Shown here: positions 9,439-43,568 of the stretch, piece after piece
Position numbering within the stretch: position 1 is the first letter of the stretch
How the letters are laid out: every line of letters starts with the position of its first letter
Assembly: GCA_049276635.1 (NCBI GenBank)
Contig: JBASWU010000026.1
Location: 2,282 to 66,281, forward strand
From: Solirubrobacterales bacterium
GTDB lineage: Bacteria > Actinomycetota > Thermoleophilia > Solirubrobacterales > JACPNS01
Direction of reading: 5' to 3'
Length of the DNA: 64,000 nucleotides
Made by a program: the position numbers and the translations under genes
Notes under the pieces: model-generated
The model's database searches: none
Seen by the model: the letters and a program-made list of their open reading frames with translations, nothing else
Told to the model about the DNA's origin: nothing

Positions 9439-11721
9439 GTGCAGGCTTTCGCCCGTCGCGCTGGTAAATCATTCGTGATGCCCTCACTCAGAGCCGGCTC
9501 GCCGGATGTCGTCCGCAAACCGCGGCGCGCGGACCCACTGCTCGTGCTGATCTTTCTCGGCTGCGCTATCGGTGGCGCGCTGCTGCTTTCGCGCGCGCGG
9601 CAGTGGCTGATGATGACCGACGAGCTGTTGTACGTGGAGATCGCGCGCGGCATCGCCGGTAGCGGTCTGCCTTGGCCGACGGCGCGCGGTGAGCCGGTTG
9701 CCGTTTACCAGCTGCTCTACCCATTGGTGATCAGCCCGATCGTCGGACTGGTCGACATGCCGGGTGCCTACGGGGTGATCACGGCGTTCAACGCCGTGCT
9801 GATGGCCTCGGCGGTGTTTCCGGCCTATCTGCTGACGAACTTCGTCACCGCCAACCGGACCGCCGCGCGCTGGGTGGCCGCCTGCACCGGTGTCGCGCCG
9901 TGGCTGGCGATGGGCAGCAAGATCCTCACCGACGCGCTCGCTTACCCGGTGTTCATCTGGGCGATCTACGCGATCGTGCTGGCAGTGGCATCGCCGGGCC
10001 GCAGACGCGACGCCTGGGCGGTCGCGGCGGTCGTCGCGGCATTCCTGACGCGTAGTCACTTCATCGTCTTGTTGCCGGTGTTCGTCGGCGCGATCCTGCT
10101 GCGCTGTTGGATCGCGGCGATTACGGCGCCGGCGCCAAATCACGCTCGGCGGCTGAAGGCCCTCCCGCCGGCCACAAGGGTCGAGCTGCGGCGGCGCTGG
10201 CCGGTCATCGCGTTGTTCGTCGTCGTCTCGATGCTGATCGTCGTGGCGCCGCGATGGATCCTCGGGATCTACGGCACTACCGCCGACGGCACGCAGGGCG
10301 GCGTGCTGACGCCGAACCTGCTGCGTGCCTCGCTTGCGCACCTCGGGATCCTGGCGGTCGGGATCGGTCCGCTGGCAATCGCGTTGGCGTTGCCGTGGCT
10401 GGGCGCCGGGCTGGGCAGGACCGGCGACGAACGCCAGCACGCCGGAGCCGTGGTCATGGTGGTCGCGATCGTCGCGATGCTGCTGACGGCGGCGTCGTTC
10501 GACCAGCGCTTCACCTTCGCCGGGGAGATATTCGAGCGTTACGTCTTTTACATCGTTCCGCTGCTGCTGTGCGCAACCGCCGCCGGTTTGGCGCGGCCGG
10601 TCAAACACTGGGCAGCGTGGGCTCTTCCCGTGCTTGCCGGCGTACTCGTGATTGCCTCGGACGAACGCTTCGGGCTGGATATCCCGACGACGATCCGCTT
10701 CTCGATGTCGTTCAAGCCGGCCTCGATCTTCATGATCGAGCTGCAGAAGATCGTCGACGGTGTCGGATTACCGAACATCACGATCGCCCTGGCGATCCTC
10801 GCCGTGATCGGCGCGGTGGTCGCCTGGTGGCTGATCGCCGGCCAGCACCTCACCGCCGCGCTCAACGCGATCATGGGAGTGACGCTCGCCTTCACGCTCG
10901 CCTGCACGCTGTATGTGGTGCCGAAGGCGATCGACGCGCAGAACAGCGCCGGATACTTGGAGTTCGTCGCGCGTGACGCAAAGCGGGACTGGCTCGATCG
11001 TGCCGCCGGGACCGCAAGTGTCGCGCTGGTCGAAGGCTCGATCAACGAGCAGCGCAGCGAGCCGATCATCCCCAGCTACAACCAGCCGACCTCATGGTGG
11101 GATCTCGAGCTTTGGAACGATTCGATCGGCACCTACTACACACCGCGCGCCGCGACACTCGACGGCACGCTGCCGACGATGGAGCCGTATTACAAGCTTG
11201 GGCTCGACTTCGAATCCGGTGTGCTCGACACAGCCGGCGGCCGCGACGACAGCTGGCTCGTGATGTCGGCCAGCGACCCGCGTTTCGCGCCGTTCTCATT
11301 TCGACCGCCGGTTCACGGCGGACCGCTGGCGGCGTACGAGACCGGCCCGGATCCACGCGCGAGCTGGATGTCCCGCGGCCTCAGCGCGCACGGGCTGCTC
11401 GCCCGCGACGCCGAGGCGACAATCCGGGTGTTCAGCACGCCGCAACCGTCGCGCGCGGCGACGGGCCTGCTGGCGCTCAGGGTCGAGGCGTCGCCGCTGG
11501 TCAAAAATCTTCCGAACCCATTCACCAAGCGCGCGCGCGAGCGTTCTGTCGGGCCGGTGCGTGAGATCGTCACCAGGCTCTGCATCCCCGCTCGCGGGCA
11601 CACCGACGTCCGCTTCTCGGGCTCCGAGCTGGCTGACCGCGCGGGTGTCAACCTGCAAAAGGCCACACCGCGTGTGATCTCGTTGCGAGTCGACCGGTCG
11701 GCCGGCAACTGCACCAGATGA
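9439..11721 (+). CDS. Large GT-C-like membrane glycosyltransferase, paralogue A (MTDEL-Y family)
   Basis: 760 aa. The N-terminal roughly 450 aa are polytopic, with first-loop motif MMTDELLYVEIARGIAGSG (compare ArnT DExRYAE). It shares LYPLVISP, FPAYLL, TDALAYP and LTRSHF blocks with 22726..25083 and 27326..29548. The C-terminal roughly 300 aa are soluble and carry WWDLELWN. The start is uncertain (ATG 9439 or 9478). Confidence 0.6.
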   Translation: MQAFARRAGKSFVMPSLRAGSPDVVRKPRRADPLLVLIFLGCAIGGALLLSRARQWLMMTDELLYVEIARGIAGSGLPWPTARGEPVAVYQLLYPLVISPIVGLVDMPGAYGVITAFNAVLMASAVFPAYLLTNFVTANRTAARWVAACTGVAPWLAMGSKILTDALAYPVFIWAIYAIVLAVASPGRRRDAWAVAAVVAAFLTRSHFIVLLPVFVGAILLRCWIAAITAPAPNHARRLKALPPATRVELRRRWPVIALFVVVSMLIVVAPRWILGIYGTTADGTQGGVLTPNLLRASLAHLGILAVGIGPLAIALALPWLGAGLGRTGDERQHAGAVVMVVAIVAMLLTAASFDQRFTFAGEIFERYVFYIVPLLLCATAAGLARPVKHWAAWALPVLAGVLVIASDERFGLDIPTTIRFSMSFKPASIFMIELQKIVDGVGLPNITIALAILAVIGAVVAWWLIAGQHLTAALNAIMGVTLAFTLACTLYVVPKAIDAQNSAGYLEFVARDAKRDWLDRAAGTASVALVEGSINEQRSEPIIPSYNQPTSWWDLELWNDSIGTYYTPRAATLDGTLPTMEPYYKLGLDFESGVLDTAGGRDDSWLVMSASDPRFAPFSFRPPVHGGPLAAYETGPDPRASWMSRGLSAHGLLARDAEATIRVFSTPQPSRAATGLLALRVEASPLVKNLPNPFTKRARERSVGPVREIVTRLCIPARGHTDVRFSGSELADRAGVNLQKATPRVISLRVDRSAGNCTR

Positions 11722-13250
11722 CCTCGACCCCCGATCACACGGCCACATCGCCCGAGCTTCGGGACCAGACCGCGTCGGTCGGCCGCGGCGTCGCTTCACT
11801 GTCGCTCGGGCAGGCCGTCTTGATGCTGATGGGCGGCGCGCTGGCGCTGTTGATGACCCAGTTCTTCGGCAAAGACGACCGAACCGACGCGTTTTTCGCC
11901 GCGTACGGGTTCTACGGAGTGGCCGTCGCCTTCGCCCAGTCGCTGCGGCTGACGGCACTACCGAGGCTGATCGGACTCGACGGCGAGTCGCAGGCCTCAC
12001 GGCTGCTCTCGGCGACGATCGTGATCGGAGGCCTGGCGGCTATTCCGATGATCGCGCTCGCCGGACCGCTGGGTGAGTTGATCGTCGACGGTGACCCGAC
12101 CGGGCGCGCCGCGACCACGCTACGCGAGCTATGGCCGACGCTCGCCCTGCAACTGCTCGCCGGAATGTTCATCGCGATCCTCGTCGTCCGTCACGTCTAC
12201 GTCGTCGTCGGCGCGCTGTTCGCGATCGCGAGCGCGATCAGCATCCTCGGATTCGTTCTGCTCGAGCCCGAACTCGGGCTCTCGGCCGTGACGGTCGGAT
12301 TGGCGATGTCGGCGTTGCTGCTGGCCGTCGGACTCGGGGCTGCCCTGCTTCGGTCAGGCTGGCGGTTCGACTGGACCACGCTGCCGCACCCACGGCGGAT
12401 CATCGCCGACGGCCTCTGGCTGACGGTCGCCTCAGCCAGTGCGATCGTGCTTAACGCCGGTTACCTGATCTGCGTCGCCGTCGCCTCCCGCGAGGGAACC
12501 GGGGTGGCGACCGACTACGCCTACGCGTTCTTCATAATTATTTTCCTGCTGGCGACGACCGCGATGCCGGCCGCGATGGTGCGAGCGCCGCGGCTGCTCA
12601 ACCGCAAGGGCGACGCCGGGTTGACCCCCGAAGACGTGATCGCCGACCTGCGCCAGACGCTCGTGATGCTGATTCCGGCGATCGGCGTGATCGCGGTCGC
12701 CGGCGTCAGCGGCATCGACATGCTGGTCGGATCGTTCTTCTCGCGCGAGGATTCCGAGCTGATCGTCGAGCTCGTGCTGGCGCTGGGACCTTGGCTGTTC
12801 GCCTCGGCGGCCGGCGTGATGGTCGTGCTGGAAATGCTCAATCGCGGTCTGGCGCGGCGGCTTTCGGCGATTGCTCTGGTGCATGTGCTGGCGCTGCTCG
12901 CCTGCTCTGTCGTCGGCGTGACGCTGCTGGGCGCCATCGGCGTGGCGATCGGGCAATCGGTCGCGATGGTCGTCGCGACGCTGATCCAGCTGCGGATCAC
13001 GTTCGCCGATCGCTTCGCCGGCGTCGTCGCGTCGCTGCTGCGCGAGGCGGCGATCGCGTCGGCCGTCTTCGCCGTCGCCTTCGGCGCGGCGAGTGTGCTT
13101 GTGCTCGCCCTGTCGGGCGGATTAGCGGCCGCCGGCGGCGCGTCCGCGGCCGGGTTGGCGGTCTTCGCGCTGCTCGCCCGGATCGCCTACGGCCGTGAGA
13201 TACACGCGCTGTTGGCCCTGGCCGCGAGCTTTCGCGGCGGTGCGCGATAG
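11718..13250 (+). CDS. MurJ/MviN-like MOP-superfamily lipid-linked glycan flippase, paralogue 1
   Basis: 510 aa polytopic protein. The N-terminal signature FFGKDDRTDAFFAAYGFYGVAVAFAQSLRLTALPRL resembles the MurJ start. ATGA overlap with the preceding gene. Confidence 0.65.
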   Translation: MTSTPDHTATSPELRDQTASVGRGVASLSLGQAVLMLMGGALALLMTQFFGKDDRTDAFFAAYGFYGVAVAFAQSLRLTALPRLIGLDGESQASRLLSATIVIGGLAAIPMIALAGPLGELIVDGDPTGRAATTLRELWPTLALQLLAGMFIAILVVRHVYVVVGALFAIASAISILGFVLLEPELGLSAVTVGLAMSALLLAVGLGAALLRSGWRFDWTTLPHPRRIIADGLWLTVASASAIVLNAGYLICVAVASREGTGVATDYAYAFFIIIFLLATTAMPAAMVRAPRLLNRKGDAGLTPEDVIADLRQTLVMLIPAIGVIAVAGVSGIDMLVGSFFSREDSELIVELVLALGPWLFASAAGVMVVLEMLNRGLARRLSAIALVHVLALLACSVVGVTLLGAIGVAIGQSVAMVVATLIQLRITFADRFAGVVASLLREAAIASAVFAVAFGAASVLVLALSGGLAAAGGASAAGLAVFALLARIAYGREIHALLALAASFRGGAR

Positions 13251-14613
13251 CCACGCCGGCGCGGCCGCGCCGGGCGCCGAACAAGGCGCGGTCGCCGGGC
13301 CGAGCCGGGCTAGACTGAAGCGCGCCTTGGCCAACCAGACCACATTGAACGATCCGTTCGCCGCGAAGCGGGACCAGCTACGCGCTGAAATCCACAGCCT
13401 GGTGGCCCGGCACTTCGAGTTGCTGCCCGATCCGCCGGCCGACGAGTGCCCGCTGTCAATGCCGCTCTACGGAGCCCAGGAGGTCGGCGGCGCGATCGAT
13501 TCGCTGCTTGAGCAGCGCGTCACGATGGGCGAGAAGGTGCGTGCCTTCGAGCGGCAGTTCGCCGAGTTCATGGGCTCGAAGTTCGCGGTGATGGTCAACA
13601 GCGGCTCCTCGGCCAACCTGCTCGCGCTCTCGGTGCTCTGCGAGCGAGCGGTCGAGAACGGCCTGCGCCCCGGCGACGAGGTGATCGTTCCGGCGGTCAC
13701 TTGGTCCACGACGATCGCGCCGATCCTGCAGCTCGGATGCATCCCGGTGCTCGTCGACATCGACGAGGAGACGCTGAACATGCGCCCCGAGTCGGTCGAG
13801 GCTGCACTGACCGAGCGCACGCGAGCGATCATGCCGGTCCACCTGCTCGGCAACCCGGTCGACATGGCGCCGCTGATGGAGATCGCCGACCGCCACGACA
13901 TGTGGGTGATCGAGGACACCTGTGAGTCGCTCGGCAGCGAGATCGCCGGAAAAAAGGTCGGATCCTTCGGCCACTTTGGCACATTCAGCTTTTACTTCTC
14001 TCACCACATCACCACGATCGAGGGCGGGATGGTCGTAACCGACGATCAGCAGCTCGTCGACCTCGCGCGCTCGTTGCGCGCCCACGGGTGGTCGCGCGAC
14101 ATGTCCACCCGGGCCGAGCTGGAGGCGCAGAACCCGCACATCGATCCATACTTCCTGTTCGTCAACGTCGGCTACAACTTACGGCCGACCGAGCTACAGG
14201 CGGCCTTCGGCCAGGTCCAGCTTGACCGGCTCGACGAGTTCAATGAGTCGCGCCGCCATAACGCCCGCGTCCTAGCCGAAGCGCTGGCCGGTTACAGCGA
14301 CCGCATGCGCCTGGTCTCCGAGCAGGAAGGCGGCCGCAGCACCTGGTTCGGCTTCTCGGTGATCACCGAGGACGCCGCGACCCGCGCCGCGCTGCGCGAC
14401 CACCTCGAGGCACGCAATATCGCCACGCGCCCGATCGTCGCGGGCAACCTCGCGGTGCAGCCGGCCTTCCGTGACAACCCTCACCGCGTCGTCGGGGATC
14501 TCGCGACCGCGACGTCGATCGGTGAGCGCGGGCTGTTCATCGGCAACCACCCAAACCTTACGGCCGACCACCTGCGGCACATCGTCACGGCCTTCGACGA
14601 CTTCTTCGGTTAA
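13195..14613 (+). CDS. DegT/DnrJ/EryC1-family PLP/PMP enzyme of the sugar 3-dehydratase type (ColD/E1-like, His in place of the Schiff-base Lys)
   Basis: Blocks: VMVNSGSSANLLAL, DEVIVPAVTWSTT, WVIEDTCESLGS. The active-site block is SFYFSHHITTIEGG, where aminotransferases have SFxxxKxxxxxEGG; the His codon is at 14002-14004. Other blocks are RAHGWSRD, TWFGFSV, RPIVAGNL and GLFIGNH. There is no Cys cluster for an E1-type 2Fe-2S centre. The start is uncertain: ATG 13195 overlaps the upstream gene by 56 nt, and in-frame TTG 13345 is an alternative. Confidence 0.7.
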   Translation: MRYTRCWPWPRAFAAVRDSHAGAAAPGAEQGAVAGPSRARLKRALANQTTLNDPFAAKRDQLRAEIHSLVARHFELLPDPPADECPLSMPLYGAQEVGGAIDSLLEQRVTMGEKVRAFERQFAEFMGSKFAVMVNSGSSANLLALSVLCERAVENGLRPGDEVIVPAVTWSTTIAPILQLGCIPVLVDIDEETLNMRPESVEAALTERTRAIMPVHLLGNPVDMAPLMEIADRHDMWVIEDTCESLGSEIAGKKVGSFGHFGTFSFYFSHHITTIEGGMVVTDDQQLVDLARSLRAHGWSRDMSTRAELEAQNPHIDPYFLFVNVGYNLRPTELQAAFGQVQLDRLDEFNESRRHNARVLAEALAGYSDRMRLVSEQEGGRSTWFGFSVITEDAATRAALRDHLEARNIATRPIVAGNLAVQPAFRDNPHRVVGDLATATSIGERGLFIGNHPNLTADHLRHIVTAFDDFFG

Positions 14614-14654
14614 GTGCCTATCCCGGCAGGGACTGAGCCGAAGCGACTCCGCGT

Positions 14655-15920
14655 ATGAACAGCGGACGTCCCGCCCGCACCGGCCGGACCGGACCGGTGA
14701 TCTGGTGCCACAGTCATTTCCTGCTGCCGACCGGCGGCACGAAGTACGTCTACGAGGTGGTGCGCAGGATCAAGCGCGACCGGCCGATCGAGGTCGTCGT
14801 CGAACGCGCGTCCGAGTACTGGCGCGAGCGCTACACGCAGGCCGGCGTGCCACTGCACGAGATCTCCGGCCTGACCTCGACGAGCAAGCGCTACTGGCTG
14901 GAGTTTCCCCGGCAGCTGCGCCACGCGGGGTCGGAGGTCGCGCGGCTCGCCGACGAACTCGACGCCGGCCACCTCGCGTCGAGCTTCTTTCCGTTCAACC
15001 GGGTCTGCGGCGAAGTCGCGTCCAAGCGCGGGCTGCGCCACACCCACCTCTGCTTCGAGCCGTTTCCGTTCTTTCACGACCGTGAGGTCCAAGGGATGTA
15101 CCCACCGGCGCAGCGCACACTGATGCGCGCGCTCGGCGCGCTCTACGGCCGGATCGACCGCGCCGGCGTGCGCTCAGCCGACGAACTGCTGACGCTCAAC
15201 GAGATCACACGTGACGCGATCGAGCGGACCTACGGCCGCACCGACGCCGTCCCGGTCTACACCGGTATCGACCACGATCACTTCCGCCCCTTCTCTGACG
15301 CGGAGCTTACCGACCTGCGCGAACGGCACGGCAGCGGGGTGTTCGCCGTCCACTCGACCGACTTCTCGCCGATCAAGCGCACAGACCTTGCGCTCGAGGC
15401 ATTCGCGGTCGCGGCGCGATCGGTCGACGCGAAACTGTTGATCACCAGCACGATCGACGACCCGAGTTCGCTCGGCGCGCTGATCAAGCGCGCCGGCGAG
15501 CTCGGTGTCGCCGACCGCATCGAGTACCTCGGGTTCGTCGACTACGACGACCTGCCGCGCTACTACGCGCTGGCGAGCGTTCTGGTGCAAACGGGCACCT
15601 CGGTCAACTCCGGCGCGACATCGATGTCGCTGCCGGTGAAGGAGGCGCTGGCATGCTCGACGGCCGTGATTCGCTCGCGCGCGACCGGCGAGGACGTCGA
15701 GGACGGCGTCAGCGGCTACCTGGTCGATCCGGCCGACAGCGAAGCTACGGGCGCCCGAATGGCCGAACTGCTGCGCGAGCCGGAACTCGCAACATCATTC
15801 GGGGCGGCCGGGCACGCGCGCATGCTTGAACTCTACAGCTGGGAGCATGTCGTGGCTGCCTTCCTGCGCGCGTTTGACGGTGTCGGCCCGGGCGACTCCG
15901 TATCGTCGGGACCGAGGTGA
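14655..15920 (+). CDS. GT-B fold glycosyltransferase (GT4 / group 1)
   Basis: 421 aa. C-terminal EX7E-type block PVKEALACSTAVIRSRATGEDVEDGVSGYLVDP and N-terminal GGTKYVYEV. Confidence 0.8.
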   Translation: MNSGRPARTGRTGPVIWCHSHFLLPTGGTKYVYEVVRRIKRDRPIEVVVERASEYWRERYTQAGVPLHEISGLTSTSKRYWLEFPRQLRHAGSEVARLADELDAGHLASSFFPFNRVCGEVASKRGLRHTHLCFEPFPFFHDREVQGMYPPAQRTLMRALGALYGRIDRAGVRSADELLTLNEITRDAIERTYGRTDAVPVYTGIDHDHFRPFSDAELTDLRERHGSGVFAVHSTDFSPIKRTDLALEAFAVAARSVDAKLLITSTIDDPSSLGALIKRAGELGVADRIEYLGFVDYDDLPRYYALASVLVQTGTSVNSGATSMSLPVKEALACSTAVIRSRATGEDVEDGVSGYLVDPADSEATGARMAELLREPELATSFGAAGHARMLELYSWEHVVAAFLRAFDGVGPGDSVSSGPR

Positions 15921-16864
15921 ACGATCAAACGGCGAAACGCGCGCTGATCACCGGTGTCTCGGGGTTCGCCGGCCGACATCTGGCCGAGCTGCTGGTGCAA
16001 AACGGCTGGGCGGTCAGCGGCACGACGAACACGCGTAGCTGCGATGTCGCGGGCGTCACCTCGCACGCGCTGCAGATCGACGACGTCGCCGCGCTCGGCG
16101 CCTTGATCGGGTCGGTCGAACCGGACGTCGTTTTTCACCTCGCGGCGATCGTCGACACCGTGCGGACGCCGAGCATCATGGAGCTGCACCGCGTGAACAC
16201 GATGGGCACCGTCGCCGTGACCGAGGCGATCGCCGAGAGCGGCTCGCGCGCGCGGCTGGTCTTCGCGAGTTCCTCGTTCGCCTACGGGCGCGTCGGCGAG
16301 AACTCGGCGGCGATCCCCGAGTCGACCGAGCTCCGGCCGGTCACCGCGTACGGTGCGAGCAAGGCCGCCGCCGAGCAGATCGTCTGGCAGCACGCGCGGC
16401 TGCGCGATGCCGACGTCGTCGTGACGCGCGCCTTTCAACACACGGGACCGGGACACACCGGCGCCTACGCGCTGGCCGACTGGGGCCGGCAGCTCGCCGA
16501 AATCGAGCAGCGCGGCGAACACGGCGCGATCGCGACCGGCAACCTCGCCGTCGAACGTGACTATCTGGACGTGCGCGATGTCGCGGCCGCCTACCTCGCC
16601 GTCGCCGAGCGCGGCCACCGTGGCGGGACCTACAACGTCTGCAGCGGGGAGCCGCTGGCAATGGAGGTTCTACTGCGCGGCCTGATCGCAAGCTTCGGGA
16701 TCGAGGTCGAAATCGAGACCGACGCCCGACGCCTGCGTAAGGTCGATCAGCCGGTCTTCGCCGGCGATCCGCGCAGGCTGTCGAACGACACCGGATGGCG
16801 GCGGCGAGTCACGCTCGAAGATACGCTCGACGCGCTTGCGTCGTACTGGCGCGCCCGGACTTGA
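15917..16864 (+). CDS. Extended SDR, GDP-4-keto-6-deoxy-D-mannose reductase (Rmd)-like
   Basis: ALITGVSGFAGRHLAELL, YGASKAAAE, RAFQHTGPGH, GNLAVERDYLDVRDVAAAYL and YNVCSG follow the Rmd pattern as I recall it from Pseudomonas Rmd. GTGA overlap with the GT4 gene. Confidence 0.65.
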   Translation: MNDQTAKRALITGVSGFAGRHLAELLVQNGWAVSGTTNTRSCDVAGVTSHALQIDDVAALGALIGSVEPDVVFHLAAIVDTVRTPSIMELHRVNTMGTVAVTEAIAESGSRARLVFASSSFAYGRVGENSAAIPESTELRPVTAYGASKAAAEQIVWQHARLRDADVVVTRAFQHTGPGHTGAYALADWGRQLAEIEQRGEHGAIATGNLAVERDYLDVRDVAAAYLAVAERGHRGGTYNVCSGEPLAMEVLLRGLIASFGIEVEIETDARRLRKVDQPVFAGDPRRLSNDTGWRRRVTLEDTLDALASYWRART

Positions 16865-17143: not shown

Positions 17144-17563
17144 TCAGCGGCCTGCGGTGATGCGAGTGTCGCCTTCGCGGATGTTGCCGTCGCGCCCGAC
17201 GTAGCCCCCGTGAGCGCCGACGATTACATAGACGGCATCGGTGTCGCCGACGTTTTTGAGCGATCGGTGGGTTTGAGCGTCGACCCGCAGCACGCCCCCC
17301 GGCCCGAGCGTGACGGTGTGCTCGTCGTTTTCGCCGAGCGTCCAGCGAACAAGGCCCTGATGCACGAAGTAGACCTCCTCCTGGCGATCGTGCCAGTGCG
17401 CGCCGGTCTCGATCCCAGGGGGCATAACAATCGCATTAATACCCAGCTCCTTAACGCCGAGCGCCGTGCGGATCTTGCGAAATCCAGGACCATCGCCGAT
17501 GTCGCCCAAACTGGCCGCCGCGTAGCCCTCGCCAACGATGACTCCTGCGTTCTGATCGCTCAC
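17144..17563 (-). CDS. Small metal-binding cupin-domain protein
   Basis: Cupin motif 1 GAHWHDRQEEVYFVHQG and motif 2 GPGGVLRVDAQTHRSLKN. Start set to GTG 17563, which is preceded by GGGAG. The longer ORF up to 17815 overlaps the divergent flippase gene and looks non-coding. Confidence 0.7.
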   Translation of the reverse strand: MSDQNAGVIVGEGYAAASLGDIGDGPGFRKIRTALGVKELGINAIVMPPGIETGAHWHDRQEEVYFVHQGLVRWTLGENDEHTVTLGPGGVLRVDAQTHRSLKNVGDTDAVYVIVGAHGGYVGRDGNIREGDTRITAGR

Positions 17564-17669
17564 TTCAAATCTCCCTGCCGTTATTGATACCCGACCACAA
17601 CCGCCCACACTACCCGGCCGGTCGCTCACGTCGCATCTCGACTGCGACAATACGGGCGAGCCGCCGCCA

Positions 17670-31523: not shown

Positions 31524-31533
31524 GCAAGCTCGC

Positions 31534-33657: not shown

Positions 33658-33700
33658 CCTCGGTCCCGCGCGGACCCTCTGCGGACCGGCGGCGCTCAGC

Positions 33701-36407: not shown

Positions 36408-37236
36408 GGCGCCATCGCATTATCGTCCGGTACACGAGCACAATCGCGCGACTGATCACGCGGTTGACGGCAACGGCGAACGGGTGCCCGGCACCGTTCT
36501 CGCGAGCGTTTTGGGCATGCTCGCGAAACTGTTGTTCGAAGCCGGTGATGCTCAGCGAACCCGCGGCCATGCGAAAGCCCGAGACATCGGCGTCGACGTA
36601 GGCCGGCCGGCCGCGCCGCGCGAGGCGCAGCCAGAGGTCGTAGTCGGCGGAGTACTTGAATCGTTCGTCGAGCAGCCCGACTTCATCCAGGACATCACGG
36701 CGCACGAAAGTCGCCGGCGACGAGACGAAGTTGTTGGTCAGATAACGGCCGAGCGTGAAATGCCTGAGCAGGAAGTTCTTGTACGCGGTCACCGCCTTGC
36801 GCGACTCGCGGCCGTCGCCGCCGATGATCGTGCAACGACCGACCAGCCACTCGGTGTCGGCGTTCGCCGCGAACCGTTCGCCGACGGCGTGCAGGCCGCC
36901 GGGGTGGTACACATCGTCGGCGTTGAGCCAAGCCACGAGATCACCGGTCGCCAGGCGGGCGCCCTTGTTGAACGCGTCGGAGAGTCCGTTGTCGGGCTCG
37001 GAGACGAGTTTGATCCGGCCGGCATCGGCCAGCGGCCGCAGGATGTCGAGCGTGCCGTCGGTCGATTCGGCATCGATCACGATGTGCTCGATGCGCGGGT
37101 AGTTCTGCCGCTCGATACTGGCGAGCGTCTCGGGCAGAGTCTCGGCGGCGTTGAACACCGGTGTGACGATCGAGATCGTCGGCAACCCCGCGTCGCCGGG
37201 CGACGCGGACGAGCTATCTGCCGCTGCCGCGGACAC
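36382..37236 (-). CDS. GT2 glycosyltransferase
   Basis: [39 protein letters not shown] and LNADDVY (DxD-like). Confidence 0.8.
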
Positions 37237-37253: not shown

Positions 37254-38261
37254 TCAGAACCCGGCGCGCCGGCGCTCGAGGTCTTCGATGTCGGCGTCGA
37301 CCATCATCTTGACCAGATCCTCGAACCCGACCTGCGGCTCCCAGCCGAGCTTCTGCTTGGCCTTCGAGGAGTCGCCGATCAGCAGGTCGACCTCGGTCGG
37401 GCGGAAGTACTTCTCGTCGATCTCGACGTGCCGCTCCCAGTCGAGTCCGGCGTGCGAAAAGGCCTGCTCACAGAACTCACGCACCGAGTGTGTCTCGCCG
37501 GTGGCCACTACGTAGTCGTCGCCGGCATCCTGCTGGAGCATCATCCACTGCGCCTCGACATAGTCGCCGGCAAACCCCCAGTCACGCTTGGCATCGAGAT
37601 TGCCGAGGTAGAGCTTGTCCTGCAGCCCGCCCTTGATATTGGCGACGGCGCGGGTTATCTTGCGCGTCACGAAGGTCTCACCGCGGCGCGGGCTCTCGTG
37701 GTTGAAAAGGATGCCGTTGGACGCATGGATGCCATAGGCCTCGCGGTAGTTGACGACGATCCAGAAGCTGTAGACCTTTGCGCAGCCGTAAGGGCTTCGC
37801 GGGTAGAACGGCGTTTTCTCCGACTGTGGAACCTCCTGGACCATGCCGAACATCTCGCTCGACGAGGCCTGGTAGAAACGTGCCGGAACCTCGGTTTCGC
37901 GAATCGCCTCAAGGATGCGCAGCGTGCCCAGCGCGTCGACGTCGCCGGTGTACTCGGGAACCTCAAAGCTGACCTTGACATGACTTTGGGCGGCGAGGTT
38001 GTAGACCTCGTCGGGAACGACCTTCTCGATGATGCGGTTGAGCGACGAAGCGTCGTTGAGGTCGCCGAAGTGCAGGAAGAGACGGACATCTCGCTCGTGC
38101 GGATCCCTGTAGAGATGATCAATGCGCGCGGTGTTGAAGCTGCTCGAGCGGCGAATCAGGCCGTGGACCTCGTAGCCCTTGTTCAGGAGCATCTCGGCCA
38201 GGTAGCTGCCGTCCTGTCCGGTGATCCCGGTGATCAATGCCTTCTTCGGTTCTGAGTTCAT
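37254..38261 (-). CDS. gmd: GDP-mannose 4,6-dehydratase
   Basis: [76 protein letters not shown] and TFVTRKITR. Gmd signature throughout. Confidence 0.95.
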
Positions 38262-38415: not shown

Positions 38416-39174
38416 ATGCCAGCTAGAAACACAAGAATCGCGATCGTCCCGGCTCTCAACGAAGGAGTCTCGATCGCCGGCGTCATCGACGCGATCGGCA
38501 GCGCGGCTCCGGACTTCGATGTGCTGGTGATCGACGACGGATCGACCGACGAAACCGCACGCATCGCCGAACAAGCCGGCGCGACCACATTGCGTCACCC
38601 GTTCAACCTCGGGATCGGCGGCGCCGTGCAGAACGGTTACCGCTACGCGCTCGAGAACGGGTACGACATGGCGGTCCAGATCGATGGCGACGGACAGCAC
38701 CCGCCGACCGAGCTGCGGAAGCTCGTCGACCGTCTGCAGAGCGACCCGCCGGTCGATCTCGTCTACGGCTCGCGGTTCCTCCGCGCGGGCGACTACGACC
38801 AGACCTTCGCCCGGCGCGCCGGGATCGTCTTCTTCTCGCTGGTGCTGTCGGTGATCACGCGCAAGCGTGTGACCGACCCGACCTCGGGCTTCCGGCTGGC
38901 CAATCGGCGGGCGATCGCGTTGTTCGCCCGTGACTACCCGCACGACTACCCCGAGGTCGAGGCGATTCTGATGATGCACCGCCACCAGCTGACCACCGCC
39001 GAAGTGCCCGTACGGATGGACACACGCCAAGGCGGCAGCTCGTCGATCACCTGGCTGCACTCGGGTTACTACATGGTCAAGGTGATGCTCGCGGTCTTTG
39101 TCGGCCTGTTCCGCGCACGCAGCGTGTTCGAGCACGAGGACGAGTCTTCGGTCTCGGCCGCGAAGGGACTCTGA
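38416..39174 (+). CDS. GT2 polyprenyl-phosphate glycosyltransferase (PpgS/GacI/WpsA-like)
   Basis: IAIVPALNEGVSI, VLVIDDGSTDET, QIDGDGQHPP, TDPTSGFR, and a single C-terminal hydrophobic helix. Start set to ATG 38416; the listed ORF start 38221 overlaps the gmd start region. Confidence 0.75.
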   Translation: MPARNTRIAIVPALNEGVSIAGVIDAIGSAAPDFDVLVIDDGSTDETARIAEQAGATTLRHPFNLGIGGAVQNGYRYALENGYDMAVQIDGDGQHPPTELRKLVDRLQSDPPVDLVYGSRFLRAGDYDQTFARRAGIVFFSLVLSVITRKRVTDPTSGFRLANRRAIALFARDYPHDYPEVEAILMMHRHQLTTAEVPVRMDTRQGGSSSITWLHSGYYMVKVMLAVFVGLFRARSVFEHEDESSVSAAKGL

Positions 39175-39593
39175 TGACCTTCACCCCCGCCGCCCCGGTC
39201 GCCGCCGCGACACTCAACTCGAAACTGCAGATCCTTGCGATCCTCGGCACGGCCACGCTGTTGGTGATCGTCTTCGAACTGGTGCGCCAGCGGCGCTTGA
39301 TGGAACGCTACTCGCTGCTTTGGCTGCTCGCCGCCTTGGTGCTGCTGGTGCTCGCCAGCTTCAGCGGTCTGCTTGAGACGCTCTCGAGCGCGGTCGGGAT
39401 CGCGACGCCGTCGAACGCACTCTTCGGGATCGGCCTCGGTTTCGTGATCCTGCTGCTGCTGCACTTCTCGGTCTCGATATCGAAGCTCAGTGACCAGGTC
39501 AAGATCCTTGCGCAGCAGCTCGCCACGACCGAGGAACGCCTGCGGCGGATCGAGGCCCGCGACGCCGGTCCCGGGTCCGACGAGGCCGGCTAG
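39174..39593 (+). CDS. Small 3-TM membrane protein, DUF2304-like (Rv3632/GacJ/WpsB-type partner)
   Basis: 139 aa. VFELVRQRRLMERYSLLWLL motif, three hydrophobic helices, then the amphipathic tail KLSDQVKILAQQLATTEERLRRIE. Its ATG overlaps the TGA of the upstream GT2 gene by 1 nt. The family call is from memory of the DUF2304 pattern. Confidence 0.55.
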   Translation: MTFTPAAPVAAATLNSKLQILAILGTATLLVIVFELVRQRRLMERYSLLWLLAALVLLVLASFSGLLETLSSAVGIATPSNALFGIGLGFVILLLLHFSVSISKLSDQVKILAQQLATTEERLRRIEARDAGPGSDEAG

Positions 39594-39669
39594 ATGGGTG
39601 ACTCCGTGAAAATGCTCACACGAACGACGTCGCATACCGGCGCTGGATCGTCATCCACGGCCACACGGG

Positions 39670-40467
39670 ATGACCCATTCGATGGTCGGTGAGGGAACTC
39701 GCTCGATCCACCGGCGCCGGATCGTCGGAACCGCGGTTTCGATCACCGACTACCAAGAGGTGCTCGATGCGATCGACGCCGCCGTCGCCGATCGCGAGCG
39801 GATCTTCATCTGTTGTACTCCGGCCAGCTCGCTGATCGCGGCGCGGCGCGACCGCCGCCTCGGCGCCGCGCTTGCCGACGCGGACATCGTGACCCCAGAC
39901 GGAATGGGCGTCGTGATCGCCGCCCGCCTGCTCGGCGAGTCGCTCCGCGGTCGCGTCTACGGCCCGGATCTGATGCTGCTTCAATGCGAGCGCGCGGCGG
40001 CGGCCGGACAACGGATCTGGCTCTACGGCGGATTCGACGACGCGGCGCTCGACGATCTGCGGGCCGCACTCGCCGAGCGTTTCCCCGGTCTCTCGATCGC
40101 CGGGGGGCACTCGCCGCCCCACCGCGATCCGGCCACACGCGAGACCGACCGGCTCGTCGCGCAGATCAACGCCGACGCGCCGGACATCGTTTGGGTCGGC
40201 ACCGGCAGCCCGAAACAGGAGCTCTGGATGCACGCGCTACGCGACCGGCTCGACGCGCCCGTCCTCTGCGGCGTCGGCGCGGCGTTCGATTTTCACGCCG
40301 GACGCACGGCGCAGGCGCCGCGCTGGTTGCGGCGGGGCGGACTCGAGTGGCTGTTTCGCGCGCTGCGTGAACCACGGCGACTCGGGCGGCGCTACCTCGG
40401 TACGCTGCCGCACTTCGTCGTGCTCGTCCTCGCCCAGTGTCTACGGGAACGTCGCGCCGCGCCGTGA
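39670..40467 (+). CDS. WecG/TagA/CpsF-family glycosyltransferase (GT26)
   Basis: IVTPDGMGVVIAARLLG, RVYGPDLM, IWLYGG, VGTGSPKQELWM, CGVGAAFDFHAG, APRWLRRGGLEWLFRALREPRR. Confidence 0.85.
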   Translation: MTHSMVGEGTRSIHRRRIVGTAVSITDYQEVLDAIDAAVADRERIFICCTPASSLIAARRDRRLGAALADADIVTPDGMGVVIAARLLGESLRGRVYGPDLMLLQCERAAAAGQRIWLYGGFDDAALDDLRAALAERFPGLSIAGGHSPPHRDPATRETDRLVAQINADAPDIVWVGTGSPKQELWMHALRDRLDAPVLCGVGAAFDFHAGRTAQAPRWLRRGGLEWLFRALREPRRLGRRYLGTLPHFVVLVLAQCLRERRAAP

Positions 40468-40542
40468 GCGGCCGTCGAAGCGATCGGACCGGCGCCCGAG
40501 AATCGGCCTCCACTGGCGACGCTTGTATAGGCTGGCGCACCG

Positions 40543-41631: not shown

Positions 41632-41673
41632 GACGCCGCGCGCCGTGACCGGCTCGCTGGTATATCTGTCGCC

Positions 41674-42567: not shown

Positions 42568-43568
42568 AGATTCTCGTAACCGGCGGCGCCGGATTTATCG
42601 GCTCCAATTACGTTCGTCACGTCTTGGGCGCCCACTCCGGGGATGAGGTCGTCGTGCTCGACAAACTGACCTACGCCGGCCGCCGTGAAAACCTCGCCGA
42701 CCTCGACGGCGACGAGCGCATGACCTTCATCCACGGCGCGATCGAGGATCGCGCGGCGGTCGACCAGGCGATCGCCGGCTGCGACGCCGTCGTCAACTTC
42801 GCCGCCGAATCGCACGTCGACCGCTCGATCGACGACCCGGAGGCCTTCATCACGACCGACGTGATCGGCACCCACGTCCTGCTCGAGGCCGCGCGCGCGG
42901 CGAACACCGGCCGCTACCTGCAGGTTTCAACCGACGAAGTCTACGGCTCGATCGAGTCCGGCTCCTTCACCGAGGAGTCGCCGATCGACCCGTCTTCGCC
43001 GTATTCGGCCAGCAAGGCCGGCGGCGACATGCTCGTCCAGGCGTATTTCCGCACCTACGGGATGCCGGCGCTGATCTGCCGGGCGTCCAACAACTACGGC
43101 GCGTTCCAGTACCCCGAGAAGCTGATCCCCTTGTGCATCCTCAACGCGCTGGCCGGCGACAAACTGCCCGTCTACGGCGACGGTATGCAGGTTCGCAACT
43201 GGCTCCATGTCGAAGATCACTGCAGCGGCATCGACACCGTCCTGCGCCGTGGAGCCGAGGGCGAGGTCTACAACATCGGCGGGCCCGACGAGTGCCCGAA
43301 CATCGACGTCGTCAAGCGAATCGTCGAACTGACCGGCCGCGACGAGTCGCTGATCGAGTACGTCACGGACCGCCCCGGCCACGATCGGCGCTACTCGCTG
43401 TCGTCGGACAAAACGCGTGCGCTCGGCTGGGAGCCGCGGACGCACTTCGCCGCCGGGCTGGCGAGCACGGTCGCGTGGTACCGCGACAACGAAGCCTGGT
43501 GGGCGCCGATTCGGTCGGGCGATTATCTCGAGTACTACCGCCGTCAGTACGGCCGCGGGCTGGCTTAG
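42564..43568 (+). CDS. rmlB: dTDP-glucose 4,6-dehydratase
   Basis: MKILVTGGAGFIGSNYVRHVL, NFAAESHVDRSI, VSTDEVYG, YSASKAGGD, VRNWLHVEDH, DRPGHDRRY. GTGA overlap with rmlD. Confidence 0.95.
   Translation: MKILVTGGAGFIGSNYVRHVLGAHSGDEVVVLDKLTYAGRRENLADLDGDERMTFIHGAIEDRAAVDQAIAGCDAVVNFAAESHVDRSIDDPEAFITTDVIGTHVLLEAARAANTGRYLQVSTDEVYGSIESGSFTEESPIDPSSPYSASKAGGDMLVQAYFRTYGMPALICRASNNYGAFQYPEKLIPLCILNALAGDKLPVYGDGMQVRNWLHVEDHCSGIDTVLRRGAEGEVYNIGGPDECPNIDVVKRIVELTGRDESLIEYVTDRPGHDRRYSLSSDKTRALGWEPRTHFAAGLASTVAWYRDNEAWWAPIRSGDYLEYYRRQYGRGLA

Follow-up and report, generated by a model that had tools for sequence, protein, structure and literature searches.

A modular surface-polysaccharide locus combining an ABC exporter with several GT-C glycosyltransferases in a Solirubrobacterales bacterium

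A 34-kb span (positions 9439-43568) of the window, the whole 64-kb stretch of DNA analyzed here, holds a large surface-polysaccharide gene cluster of an uncultured soil actinobacterium (Solirubrobacterales, Thermoleophilia). We consider it probable that these genes together form a single modular locus, whose product would be a secondary wall polysaccharide associated with peptidoglycan. A backbone exported by an ABC transporter and then glycosylated outside the membrane is a reasonable fit to the gene content. Genes were called as GC3-filtered ORFs, at positions that agree with those of the initial annotation, and were assigned by family, profile and structure searches (Pfam, NCBIfam, hhalign, AlphaFold, and Foldseek against the PDB). 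We recorded the fold or family of each protein, paralogy, gene order, and the conservation of a core in related MAGs.

On the left, nrdJ (6182-9340), confirmed by family search, is followed by a strong intrinsic-terminator-like hairpin (9372..9399, plus strand; a 12-bp stem with 10 G-C pairs, then a T-rich tail), at which the glycan locus is bounded transcriptionally on its left side. On the right, unrelated genes follow from 43601 onward, so that the borders drawn originally were upheld. The previously noted GalE-like SDR epimerase left of nrdJ (3244..4185, plus strand; PF01370, E 9.6e-56; TIGR01179, 181 bits, below the cutoff of 262) was also recovered, and it is syntenic with the glycan locus in relatives.

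GT-C glycosyltransferases

Three of the polytopic proteins are paralogs, here called A1, A2 and A3. A1 (9544..11721, plus strand; the ORF opens at 9439) has about 12 TM helices followed by a C-terminal beta-sandwich domain. Its AlphaFold model (pLDDT 87.9, pTM 0.91) confirmed the predicted GT-C fold: the best 19 PDB matches in Foldseek were all GT-C enzymes, with ArnT (5f15, E 5.8e-7) at the top, followed by AglB, EmbB, AftB, ALG9, DPY19 and AftA. D26-E27 in the first outer loop is invariant among 42 homologs. For A2 (22801..25083, plus strand; the ORF opens at 22615) and A3 (27341..29548, plus strand), which lie directly upstream of wzt and directly downstream of wzm, respectively, the predicted fold is confirmed through paralogy with A1. 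A3 is 33% identical to A1 over 709 aa (E 2e-77), and A2 is 28% identical to A3 over its full length (E 7e-46), matches A1 with E 9e-24, and keeps the MTDELQY motif. C-terminal beta-sandwich domains are present in all three paralogs, of which A2 and A3 flank the wzt-wzm pair. The A family is a GT-C family without a Pfam assignment.

A fourth GT-C enzyme, of the PMT_2/DUF2142 type (577 aa; 33710..35362, plus strand; the ORF opens at 33629), has its predicted fold confirmed by its AlphaFold model (pLDDT 78.8, pTM 0.85), for which nearly all of the best Foldseek matches were GT-C enzymes (ArnT with 5.3e-6, next Pmt4, AglB, STT3, ALG9 and AftA). Homologs with 50% identity bear PF13231, PF09913 or PF02366. 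Hhalign gave 95% against the A family, and both families carry invariant acidic motifs directly after TM1, in the 577-aa family P-D-E-D-Y-H.

The initial annotation had counted five GT-C proteins in the span and a sixth just left of nrdJ. The four described above were retained. The fifth, no more than a candidate, is a 551-aa polytopic membrane protein (19229..20884, minus strand) in which D-D-W is invariant behind TM1 and the C-terminal domain is rich in Cys. It had no Pfam, NCBIfam or PDB match and no significant hhalign match to GT-C profiles; two of the 14 members of its family match DUF6541. The sixth (TM515, 515 aa; 4493..6040, minus strand) is at best a probable GT-C protein. It is polytopic, and its F-R-D-D-L aligns with the MTDEL motif of the A family (hhalign probability 31%, E 5e-4, colinear over 201 columns), but its PMT (E 0.0085) and Alg9-like (E 0.048) scores are below the cutoff.

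Lipid-linked sugars and flippases

Two divergent MurJ-like flippases of the MOP superfamily are encoded in the span, as had been proposed. The start codon of flippase 1 (11718..13250, plus strand), which has a profile match to MurJ, overlaps the stop codon of A1. Flippase 2 (17670..19211, plus strand) is 40% identical to it over 426 aa (E 1e-87) and belongs to the same family alignment (A5), whose profile matched MurJ (7waw) over the full length with E 3e-25. PF03023 was matched by 15 of 34 flippase 1 homologs. Homologs fused to GT4 (P0179) or to a PMT_2 GT-C domain (P0185) mirror the window order of GT-C, flippase, ColD-type dehydratase and GT4.

Both proposed GtrB/PpgS-type GT2 enzymes were likewise recognized. 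One is a GtrB/ArnC/PgfS-type polyprenyl-phosphate glycosyltransferase, a GT2 domain with two C-terminal TM helices (21759..22733, plus strand; PF00535, E 1.4e-29; PgfS NF047588, 249 bits, and ArnC NF007986, 177 bits, both below the equivalog cutoffs). The other is a PpgS/GacI-type polyprenyl-phosphate HexNAc synthase (38416..39174, plus strand; PF00535, E 1.5e-20; PpgS NF058614, E 8.9e-29, 100 bits, below the cutoff of 370). It is followed by a small DUF2304 membrane protein (39174..39593, plus strand; PF10066, E 7e-24, 84.6 bits against a cutoff of 25.5), which is its putative GacJ/Rv3632-type activator. GacJ is a DUF2304 protein, and Rv3632 stimulates PpgS (10.1101/180810); the pairing is thus the same as in GacI/GacJ and PpgS/Rv3632. 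The two lipid-sugar synthases are outnumbered by the four to six GT-C enzymes, which makes any assignment of donors tentative and counts against the favored reading.

MurJ/Wzx-class flippases normally carry lipid-linked oligosaccharides and not single sugars. This speaks for a reading, which we regard as rather unlikely, that the A-family proteins are polymerases or en-bloc transferases of lipid-linked oligo- or polysaccharides and not monosaccharide decorators. They would receive substrates from the MurJ-like flippases or from Wzm/Wzt, and a large part of the polymer mass would arise extracytoplasmically, in the manner of WpsI/WpsJ in L. lactis or Emb/Aft in mycobacteria. Foldseek matched A1 to EmbB, AftB and AftA, among others, and GT4 and sugar-nucleotide enzymes share the operon of A1 and flippase 1. 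A large C-terminal beta-sandwich domain is also found in Emb enzymes and C. youngae ORF12 (PMC11127046), and the L. lactis GT-C enzymes with C55-P-oligosaccharide donors provide a precedent (PMC9574508). However, ArnT, which ranks first among the structural matches of A1, transfers a monosaccharide, and the window encodes two classic synthases of polyprenyl-phosphate monosaccharides. Behind the last TM helix, members of the A family have only F/L-W-N in common and not W-W-D.

Predicted backbone synthesis, export and nucleotide sugars

Family and homology searches also bore out the remaining gene content of the initial annotation, i.e., the TagA/WecG GT26, the Wzt/Wzm exporter, the cytoplasmic GT domains, a methyltransferase, a coiled-coil protein and the nucleotide-sugar enzymes. 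WecG/TagA (39670..40467, plus strand; PF03808, E 1.5e-57) is predicted to add the second sugar of a linkage unit. The other cytoplasmic transferases are a GT4 of the GT-B fold (14655..15920, plus strand; PF00534, E 1.2e-17; PF13692, E 3.6e-17), two GT2 enzymes (29545..30615, plus strand, PF00535, E 5.4e-20; 36382..37236, minus strand, PF00535, E 2.6e-29), and a bifunctional protein that joins a GT2 to a WsaF-like GT-B domain (31534..33657, plus strand; PF00535, E 2.4e-20; WsaF_C, E 1.6e-11; WsaF_N, E 5e-5). The N-terminal half of the latter, the likely backbone polymerase, is 41% identical to the first of the two GT2 enzymes.

Wzt (25093..26421, plus strand) matched ABC_tran (E 1.4e-22) and Wzt_C (PF14524, E 1e-22, 81 bits against a cutoff of 30); the ABC-2 permease Wzm (26418..27323, plus strand; PF01061, ABC2_membrane, E 1.1e-13) has at least five TM segments by hydropathy. 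A class I SAM methyltransferase (20911..21633, minus strand; PF08241, E 7.6e-25) directly precedes the gene of the 551-aa protein, in the same orientation. The coiled-coil protein (30630..31523, plus strand) had no Pfam match and was refined, through homology, to a degenerate methyltransferase fold with a coiled coil and a C-terminal hydrophobic helix. It aligns over its full length with methyltransferase-coiled-coil proteins of related loci (28% over 317 aa, E 1e-13), which keep VLDAGCGEG where the window copy has VLVVGEADTR, and it is a putative chain-length or terminator scaffold. Wzt_C and this terminator homolog fit the capped-chain ABC pathway described previously (PMC11127046).

The nucleotide-sugar genes comprise RmlA of the long form (40543-41631, plus strand; TIGR01208, 461 bits against a cutoff of 320), RmlD (41674-42567, plus strand; PF04321, 291 bits), an RmlB-like 4,6-dehydratase (42564-43568, plus strand; PF16363/PF01370), the GDP-mannose 4,6-dehydratase Gmd (37254..38261, minus strand; PF16363, 500 bits) and an Fcl/ColC-like GDP-4-keto-6-deoxymannose epimerase/reductase (35319..36407, minus strand; NF047922, 293 bits over the full length, below the cutoff of 500). 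The Gmd protein occurs in identical form in two Solirubrobacterales-type MAG assemblies. An Rmd-like GDP-4-keto-6-deoxy-D-mannose reductase (15917..16864, plus strand) had its best PDB match in the GDP-6-deoxy-D-lyxo-4-hexulose reductase 2pk3 (E 1.6e-53, full length; 6x3b, 3e-42). A ColD-type, PMP-dependent NDP-4-keto-6-deoxyhexose 3-dehydratase (13195..14613, plus strand) matched E1 (3bcx, 2.8e-84) and ColD (2gms, 7e-80); in its FSFYFSHHITTIEGG motif, His occupies the position of the PLP-binding Lys of aminotransferases, the Cys-rich (Fe-S) insert of E1 is absent, and RfbH (NF011936) scored 374 bits, below the cutoff of 423. Since the PpgS, PgfS, Fcl and RfbH scores are below the curated equivalog cutoffs, sugar identities are guesses.

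In agreement with the initial annotation, no priming phosphoglycosyltransferase, LCP ligase or RmlC was found among the ORFs scanned across the 64 kb, and family searches found no ManB/ManC in the window. A small cupin of about 140 aa (17144..17566, minus strand) matched Cupin_2 only (E 2.3e-11) and had no RmlC-family match. As all these functions would be encoded outside the window, wall attachment and L-rhamnose are assumptions. Cultured Solirubrobacter are Gram-positive, with rhamnose among their whole-cell sugars (PMC10722151).

The product could alternatively be an S-layer or surface-protein O-glycan, as in the slg clusters of Geobacillus and Paenibacillus, with one of the polytopic proteins as oligosaccharyltransferase, which we think improbable. 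Rhamnan clusters of the slg type (WsaA-P) carry a WsaF-like domain, a methyltransferase, Wzm/Wzt and rml genes, and all of these occur in the window; AglB, STT3 and PglB are also among the structural matches. Against this, WecG/TagA indicates a GlcNAc-ManNAc wall linkage unit, and family searches detected neither a Wzy_C/O-antigen-ligase-type transferase nor an S-layer gene in the window. While W-W-D superficially resembles the WWDYG motif of oligosaccharyltransferases, their sequence motif is not conserved.

Proposed pathway, related loci and known systems

For the favored wall polysaccharide, we infer the substrates, the order of steps, the single-polymer product and the acceptor. A TagO/WecA-type enzyme encoded elsewhere would form polyprenyl-PP-GlcNAc, to which WecG/TagA would add the second linker sugar. 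The two GT2 enzymes and GT2-WsaF would then polymerize a 6-deoxyhexose-rich backbone in the cytoplasm from dTDP-L-rhamnose (RmlA/B/D, with RmlC elsewhere) and GDP-6-deoxyhexoses (Gmd with the Rmd-like and Fcl-like enzymes). Chain length would be set by a terminator system of the methyltransferase and the degenerate methyltransferase-coiled-coil scaffold; the C-terminal module of Wzt would recognize the capped end, and Wzm/Wzt would export the lipid-linked chain. In parallel, the GtrB/ArnC-like synthase and the PpgS/GacI-like synthase with its DUF2304 activator would load sugars on polyprenyl phosphate, and one of these lipid intermediates may receive a 3,6-dideoxyhexose through the joint action of the GT4 and the ColD-type and Rmd-like enzymes. 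The two MurJ-like flippases would move lipid-linked donors outward, at least four GT-C enzymes would transfer these sugars to the exported backbone, and an LCP-type ligase encoded elsewhere would attach the product to peptidoglycan.

In four places (11718/11721, 15917/15920, 26418/26421 and 29545/29548) the start codon of a gene overlaps the stop codon of the one before it, and the A2-wzt and wzm-A3 gaps are 10 to 20 bp each, which argues for co-transcription of these neighbors. Related loci, all from MAGs (Solirubrobacterales, Thermoleophilaceae) and compared over 20 kb each, keep a core of an A-family GT-C near a GT2, a methyltransferase-coiled-coil gene and GT2-WsaF, the most conserved gene (44-62% identity). 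Several also have Wzm/Wzt, Gmd and a PpgS-like gene, the latter beside DUF2304 in L010. The order GalE, TM515, nrdJ, GT-C is kept in L004-L008. The cupin is 61-64% identical to genes in L006-L008, and in L008 it lies two genes after the A1 ortholog, just before a GT2.

L007 and L008 keep the A1 ortholog and the core; in the 20 kb compared they have neither the flippase/ColD/GT4 module nor the block from flippase 2 to A3. The modules could therefore serve different products, and the span could be a glycan island of two or three independent pathways instead of one assembly line, an alternative that we judge possible, if less probable. The core (GT2, coiled-coil protein, GT2-WsaF, Wzm/Wzt, Gmd, Rml, WecG) might then make one ABC-exported polymer. 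A1, flippase 1, the ColD-type dehydratase, GT4 and the Rmd-like reductase might form one further module, and flippase 2, the 551-aa protein, the methyltransferase and the GtrB-like synthase another; both might act on other acceptors such as lipoglycans, teichoic-type polymers or proteins. Consistent with this, the modules lie on separate, partly divergent transcription units, and three-component GT-C systems often act on acceptors encoded elsewhere, e.g., CsdB in L. lactis (PMC9574508). However, A2 and A3 abut wzt and wzm; the A paralogs are one family, and A3 orthologs share 20-kb loci with GT2/WsaF, Wzm/Wzt and PpgS-like genes in L009, L010, L027 and L053. Moreover, family searches found no second export or polymerization system (Wzy or synthase) in the window. 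We retain the single modular locus as our preferred reading.

Mycobacterial arabinogalactan follows the same logic, with multiple GT-C enzymes outside the membrane. The initial annotation had predicted the export of a backbone followed by GT-C decoration, which gene content and homology fit, but had not recognized the architecture as a known system and had put known ABC-dependent loci at normally no more than one GT-C. Given the systems of S. pyogenes, S. mutans, L. lactis, C. youngae and mycobacteria, this understates what is known. S. pyogenes has GacI/GacJ(DUF2304)/GacK/GacL (10.1101/180810; PMC9574508), SccN/M/P/Q of S. mutans are two GT-A and two GT-C enzymes (PMC11754754), and the L. lactis cwps locus has two GT-C enzymes, WpsI and WpsJ (PMC9574508). 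The C. youngae O-antigen locus combines Gmd/Rmd, Wzm/Wzt-CBM, a coiled-coil terminator, a GT-C-with-CBM and a MATE transporter (PMC11127046). An ABC pathway with multi-component transmembrane glycosylation is therefore already known from GAC/SCC, lactococcal rhamnan-PSP and C. youngae, and the present locus is a multiplied version of a described architecture, not a new system. As two whole modules are missing in close MAG loci, the high GT-C count points to strain-level expansion and not to a fixed design. New here are the GT-C copy number, the lineage, a GT-C family unassigned in Pfam, and flippases of the MurJ-like instead of the GtrA/Wzx kind.

GT-C glycosyltransferases of the locus

Within the 34-kb glycan locus (9439-43568), four GT-C enzymes can be regarded as established, by structure models and Foldseek for A1 (9544-11721) and a 577-aa protein (33710-35362), and by paralogy for A2 (22801-25083) and A3 (27341-29548). 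Direct searches with the membrane proteins returned nothing usable from Pfam (E up to 10) or NCBIfam (E up to 0.1), and neither single-sequence nor profile searches against PDB sequences found a GT-C enzyme. The nature of the membrane proteins was settled solely by structure prediction combined with Foldseek and by transitive homology.

A1, A2, and A3 are paralogues that have an M-T-D-E-L motif after the first transmembrane (TM) helix in common, and A2 and A3 were counted as GT-C enzymes on the basis of this paralogy (E 1e-46 to 1e-77). The AlphaFold model of A1, calculated from an alignment of 42 homologues, reached a pLDDT of 87.9 and a pTM of 0.91. In the model, some 12 long helices precede residue 470 and a beta-rich domain forms the C-terminus, in agreement with the hydropathy profile; A1 is polytopic, within the 8-13 TM helices expected of GT-C proteins. 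The best 19 Foldseek matches in the PDB were all GT-C proteins (probability 0.94-1.00, with 1.00 in 15 of the 19), headed by ArnT (5f15, E 5.8e-7, TM-score 0.42/0.52) and including AglB, EmbB, AftB, ALG9, DPY19, STT3, Pmt4, PglB, and AftA. In the A family, i.e., the three paralogues and their homologues, residues D26-E27 are invariant in 42 homologues and lie directly after TM1 in the first extracytoplasmic loop, which is the position of the acidic, modified DXD motif. The motifs R-x-Q and E-R-Y are likewise invariant, as are two others that lie in the C-terminal beta-sandwich domain. Behind the last TM helix, family-wide conservation is limited to W-x-D and F/L-W-N. A W-W-D-x-E-F-W-N stretch at this place recalls WWDYG and brought up the idea of an oligosaccharyltransferase, but since W-W-D is restricted to a subgroup, we dropped the motif as a family feature. 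Three A1 homologues with a length of about 1100 aa (P0026, P0027, and P0044), which come from Gaiellaceae and from metagenomes, join a GT4 domain to an A-family-related PMT_2 GT-C domain.

The 577-aa protein is 50% identical to homologues that match PMT_2 (PF13231), DUF2142 (PF09913), or PMT. Its AlphaFold model (pLDDT 78.8) found ArnT (E 5.3e-6), Pmt4, AglB, STT3, and ALG9 as best PDB matches in Foldseek. An invariant P-D-E-D-Y-H provides an acidic loop-1 motif, and the profile of this family aligned with that of the A family at 95% probability.

The initial annotation had counted five GT-C-like proteins in the span. Structure or paralogy supports A1-A3 and the 577-aa protein; the fifth, a 551-aa protein (19229-20884, reverse strand), was not tied to GT-C by any search. 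Comparison with two GT-C profiles by hhalign gave probabilities of 0.5% and 27%, no match was found in the PDB, and DUF6541, for which a literature search found nothing, was matched in 2 of 14 family members. Its topology and a D-D-W that is invariant behind TM1 are compatible with GT-C, and its outer domain is rich in Cys. Just outside the span, a 515-aa protein (4493-6040, reverse strand) showed marginal matches to PMT (E 0.0085, below the cutoff) and Alg9, and aligned colinearly but weakly with the A family (hhalign probability 31%, E 5e-4). Judged by these sequence comparisons, it is a probable GT-C enzyme.

Lipid-linked donors, nucleotide sugars, and export

Two GT2 genes are candidates for the synthesis of lipid-linked sugars. 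The product of 21759-22733 carries two C-terminal TM helices and is most similar to PgfS and ArnC. The product of 38416-39174 is most similar to PpgS, with a score below the PpgS equivalog cutoff, and its gene abuts a DUF2304 gene (39174-39593, PF10066). The DUF2304 protein GacJ activates GacI, and Rv3632 acts likewise on PpgS (10.1101/180810). Three related 20-kb MAG loci (L010, L027, and L053) each contain a PpgS-like gene along with an A3 orthologue; in L010, a DUF2304 gene lies beside the former. Judged by this gene context, including the PpgS-like and GtrB-like synthases of the locus itself, A1-A3 may use lipid-phosphate-linked sugar donors. The window has the GT-A polyprenyl-phosphate sugar synthase with adjacent DUF2304 gene that marks four-component systems of the GacI/J/K/L type, and also their combination of a MOP-superfamily flippase with GT-C in one locus, here represented by four GT-C genes and two flippases that are MurJ-like, not Wzx-like. 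The ORFs with coding-like GC3 and a length of 120 aa or more include no GtrA-type four-TM flippase of the classic three-component Gtr system; their sole small membrane protein is the DUF2304 protein.

Flippase 1 (11718-13250) and flippase 2 (17670-19211), both of 510 aa, are 40% identical to each other. Neither matched a Pfam model on its own; the profile of the flippase family aligned with MurJ structures over the full length (E 3e-25), and 15 of 34 relatives matched PF03023. One homologue of flippase 1 (P0179, 942 aa) is fused to a GT4 domain and another (P0185, 955 aa) to a PMT_2-type GT-C domain, the latter a weak match (E 1.5e-4). These fusions suggest that the flippase subfamily serves the decoration of glycans and not the export of lipid II.

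Family and profile searches upheld the soluble-enzyme assignments of the initial annotation. WecG/TagA, Wzt with its Wzt_C module, Wzm, RmlA (above the curated cutoff), RmlD, an RmlB-like dehydratase, and Gmd were clearly assigned, and the cytoplasmic glycosyltransferase domains comprise a GT4, three GT2, one of which is fused to a WsaF-like GT-B domain (31534-33657), and WecG. RmlC is absent from the window, where RmlA, RmlB-like, and RmlD proteins are present. This absence had already been noted, and it held, as the sole cupin in the window (17144-17566, reverse strand) matches Cupin_2 and not the RmlC family; the cupin is therefore unsupported as the missing RmlC. This protein of about 140 aa is 61-64% identical to counterparts in loci L006-L008, where it is encoded between an A1-type GT-C and a GT2.

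A DegT-family protein (13195-14613) is much closer in its matches to the 3-dehydratases E1 and ColD than to aminotransferases. The PLP-binding Lys is replaced by His (FSFYFSHHITTIEGG) and the Cys-rich Fe-S insert of E1 is missing, which together with the E1/ColD match indicates a ColD-type enzyme. Two SDR proteins were classified as Rmd-like (15917-16864; 2pk3, E 1.6e-53) and as Fcl/ColC-like (35319-36407, score below the equivalog cutoff). Regarding the features of GDP-colitose and GDP-D-rhamnose synthesis, the window thus includes Gmd, a protein with ColD-type features, and an Rmd-like protein with a strong PDB match, while ManB and ManC are absent from it. The ColD-type 3-dehydratase and the Rmd-like 4-reductase are encoded in one operon (13195-16864) with a GT4 gene between them. 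If the two enzymes act in sequence, they would yield a GDP-3,6-dideoxyhexose other than colitose, a route for which we know of no described pathway.

[quoted passage not shown] The gene at 30630-31523 had been described simply as encoding a coiled-coil protein. The coiled coil was confirmed; beyond this, the protein is a full-length homologue of methyltransferase-coiled-coil proteins found at the same position in related loci, with a decayed SAM-binding motif (VLVVGEADTR, compared to VLDAGCGEG in the homologues). A separate, intact methyltransferase is encoded elsewhere in the locus (20911-21633), and the coiled-coil protein may be a catalytically dead ruler or scaffold that works with it. By sequence, the coiled-coil homologue, the intact methyltransferase, and Wzt_C are the signature of a putative capped-chain ABC pathway with a coiled-coil ruler (PMC11127046). 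None of the ORFs scanned in the 64-kb window matched a priming phosphoglycosyltransferase (WecA/TagO), in line with what had been reported from the sequence before; priming enzymes of this type are often encoded elsewhere (PMC11127046).

Borders, related loci, and host

The gene map, built from ORFs filtered by high third-position G+C in a window of 64-70% G+C, is clean and nearly free of gaps. On the left, topA, a GalE-like epimerase gene, the 515-aa membrane protein gene, and nrdJ (6182-9340) are found, and a strong intrinsic-terminator-like hairpin (9372-9399; 12-bp stem, 10 G-C pairs) lies directly 3' of nrdJ, and the first GT-C gene comes after it. All genes between about 9.4 kb and 43568 are glycan-related, and unrelated genes start at 43601. 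The hairpin and the non-glycan genes confirm the locus borders as originally drawn. Apart from this hairpin, promoter and terminator scans of the window stayed at chance level, and Rfam identified no RNA families in it. Overlapping or almost abutting genes support likely co-transcription within each of four units (9439-16864, 21759-35362, 38261-35319, and 38416-43568).

Directly after rmlB, 43601-45478 holds three genes, one for a 242-aa histidine-kinase core that has neither sensor nor TM region, one for a Crp-family regulator, and one for an ASCH-domain protein. The same three genes follow rmlB in L001 and L002, succeeded by Cpn10 and Cpn60, while L003 ends after the ASCH gene. In the window, the region beyond the ASCH gene corresponds to Cpn10 and Cpn60 in related contigs and is followed by a UvrD-family helicase-nuclease gene and carboxylase/AtuA genes. 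In this flank, a 211-aa protein (49354-49989, reverse strand) with sub-threshold matches to histone H1-like HC2 and apolipoprotein repeats may be a basic nucleoid-associated protein, and 56415-63574 (reverse strand; acyl-CoA ligase, alpha and beta subunits of a methylcrotonyl-CoA-type biotin carboxylase, and AtuA) looks like a cluster for acyclic-terpene or leucine catabolism.

The order GalE, 515-aa protein, nrdJ, and A1 orthologue is conserved in L004-L008. In L007 and L008, the A1 orthologue is followed by one unassigned ORF, a cupin, a GT2, the coiled-coil protein, and GT2-WsaF; over the 20 kb compared, these two loci lack the flippase/ColD/GT4 module and any equivalent of the block from flippase 2 to A3. 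In L009, L010, L027, and L053, an A3-like GT-C gene lies near a methyltransferase-coiled-coil gene or a GT2, GT2-WsaF, and Wzm/Wzt. Large polytopic proteins (at least 380 aa) number at most 3 per related 20-kb locus compared to 7 in the 34-kb span of the window. From this synteny we conclude that the locus consists of a conserved core and duplicated, strain-variable decoration modules, an arrangement that is usual for surface glycans. Considering that both flippase modules are missing from the 20 kb compared in L007 and L008, the high GT-C count of the window seems to reflect duplications at strain level.

The nearest homologues of the membrane proteins stem from MAGs labeled Solirubrobacterales, Thermoleophilaceae, and Gaiellaceae. 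Two NCBI MAG assemblies encode an identical Gmd protein, on contigs that are syntenic with the right third of the locus. A scan of a genome collection, with a pattern that derives from a narrow A-family alignment and retrieves only MTDEL-bearing proteins, yielded 54 loci, all 54 from MAGs and almost all labeled Thermoleophilia or unclassified Actinomycetota. Thermoleophilia are a deep-branching actinobacterial class, abundant in soil and barely cultured, with almost no envelope biochemistry. A literature search on wall glycosyltransferases of this class returned nothing relevant, and no cultured relative or characterized polymer linked to this gene set was found. One cultured Solirubrobacter is reported in its species description to be Gram-positive, with rhamnose among the whole-cell sugars (PMC10722151).

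Relation to known systems and proposed pathway

The initial annotation did not recognize the architecture as a described system and stated that comparable loci normally carry zero or one GT-C enzyme. An undescribed architecture is not supported, and the stated number is too low. The same logic underlies the group A carbohydrate (GAC, S. pyogenes GacA-L), the serotype c carbohydrate (SCC, S. mutans SccN/M/P/Q), the lactococcal rhamnan-PSP, the Citrobacter youngae O-antigen, and mycobacterial arabinogalactan; SCC has two synthase/GT-C pairs (PMC11754754) and L. lactis two GT-C enzymes (PMC9574508).

Like the window, as judged by its gene content, the streptococcal GAC and SCC loci combine Rml genes, cytoplasmic rhamnosyltransferases, and a Wzm/Wzt-type exporter (10.1101/180810, PMC9574508, PMC11754754) with extracytoplasmic side-chain GT-C enzymes, and their primer transferase and LCP ligase are encoded elsewhere. 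Another shared trait is the GT-A polyprenyl-phosphate sugar synthase that is paired with a DUF2304 activator (GacI/GacJ in GAC), along with a MOP-superfamily flippase (GacK). The streptococcal loci have 1 or 2 GT-C enzymes, whereas the window has four confirmed ones, the 551-aa candidate, and the probable 515-aa enzyme outside the span. Their flippases are Wzx-like and those of the window MurJ-like, and WecG/TagA takes the place of the GacB rhamnosyl linker. The window adds Gmd, the Rmd-like, Fcl-like, and ColD-type enzymes, the Wzt_C module, and the putative coiled-coil terminator, lacks a GroP transferase, and belongs to an actinobacterium rather than to Lactobacillales.

The cwps locus of L. 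lactis (WpsA-J) follows a dual-chain logic, in which a rhamnan is exported by an ABC transporter and a second lipid-linked unit is begun by a GT-A enzyme with a small activator (WpsA/WpsB), extended by cytoplasmic glycosyltransferases, and flipped by a MOP-family flippase, before the GT-C enzymes WpsI and WpsJ polymerize and transfer it (PMC9574508). By analogy, the window module of A1, flippase, ColD-type enzyme, GT4, and Rmd-like enzyme fits this second-unit pattern. The window differs in that it lacks a Wzz-like WpsH, has more GT-C copies from families unrelated in sequence, and has different predicted sugars. In less likely readings, the GT-C enzymes of the window would polymerize the chain or transfer units en bloc, as their counterparts do in L. 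lactis or in mycobacteria, or the locus would hold independent pathways side by side.

The C. youngae O1/O2 O-antigen locus, a case of three-component pentofuranose addition, resembles the window in a Gmd/Rmd supply of D-rhamnose and a coiled-coil chain terminator, both putative in the window, and in a Wzm/Wzt exporter that carries a C-terminal CBM, a GT-C enzyme that ends in a carbohydrate-binding domain, and a MOP-superfamily (MATE) transporter in the locus (PMC11127046). Unlike the window, it serves a Gram-negative LPS with WaaL ligation and has one GT-C enzyme, and it uses as donor a polyprenyl-phosphoribofuranose, which a PRTase-type enzyme makes in place of GtrB-/PpgS-type GT2 proteins. 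Mycobacterial arabinogalactan and LAM share with the system predicted for the window an actinobacterial wall polymer, a lipid-linked backbone passing a Wzm/Wzt-type transporter, many extracytoplasmic GT-C enzymes that use polyprenyl-phosphate sugars, and a PpgS + DUF2304-type pair (PpgS-Rv3632-Rv3630). The likeness of Emb and Aft to the window GT-C enzymes is one of fold only, as they are among the Foldseek matches, of which ArnT is the best; no Pfam or NCBIfam match in the window indicated Emb/Aft membership. The window also lacks UbiA-type, DprE-type, and decaprenyl-phospho-arabinose genes, galactofuranosyl transferases, and a WbbL linker enzyme. Due to the missing sequence membership and arabinose-donor genes, we place the locus outside the Emb/Aft system. 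The window departs from the known systems in four ways: the number of GT-C enzymes, MurJ-like flippases in place of GtrA/Wzx, a GT-C family unmatched by Pfam and NCBIfam, and its lineage.

The gene content suggests that the product is most likely a wall-linked polysaccharide; a protein O-glycan is a less likely alternative. The gene inventory of the initial annotation was confirmed but for the 551-aa candidate, and for the wall-linked polysaccharide its mechanistic outline is reasonable. The polymer would be primed by an enzyme encoded elsewhere and extended by WecG. Cytoplasmic polymerization from dTDP- and GDP-6-deoxyhexoses would follow, and then capping and export through Wzm/Wzt. The two synthases would make polyprenyl-phosphate-linked donors, the MurJ-like proteins would flip them outward, and the GT-C enzymes would use them to glycosylate the exported chain outside the membrane. 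In this outline we infer the substrates, the acceptor, and a single polymer as the product. We consider it rather unlikely that a broader model applies, in which Thermoleophilia build a wall heteropolysaccharide largely outside the membrane: A lineage-restricted GT-C family unmatched by Pfam/NCBIfam, with paralogues bracketing Wzm/Wzt, would polymerize or branch the exported chain, fed by dedicated MurJ-like flippases, and would represent an arabinogalactan/LAM-style line with an origin separate from, or earlier than, that of Corynebacteriales.

The known logic of envelope glycan assembly stays unchanged by these results. If the model is true, it would provide the first gene-level view of secondary wall-polymer assembly in Thermoleophilia, and add a GT-C family that Pfam and NCBIfam do not match and that was found almost only in Thermoleophilia-type MAGs in one family-motif genome scan. 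It would further suggest, supported by the GT4 and GT-C fusions, that divergent MurJ-like proteins, rather than GtrA/Wzx, can serve multi-component glycosylation, and that duplication can raise the number of extracytoplasmic GT-C steps per ABC-exported glycan well beyond the 1-2 of model Firmicutes.
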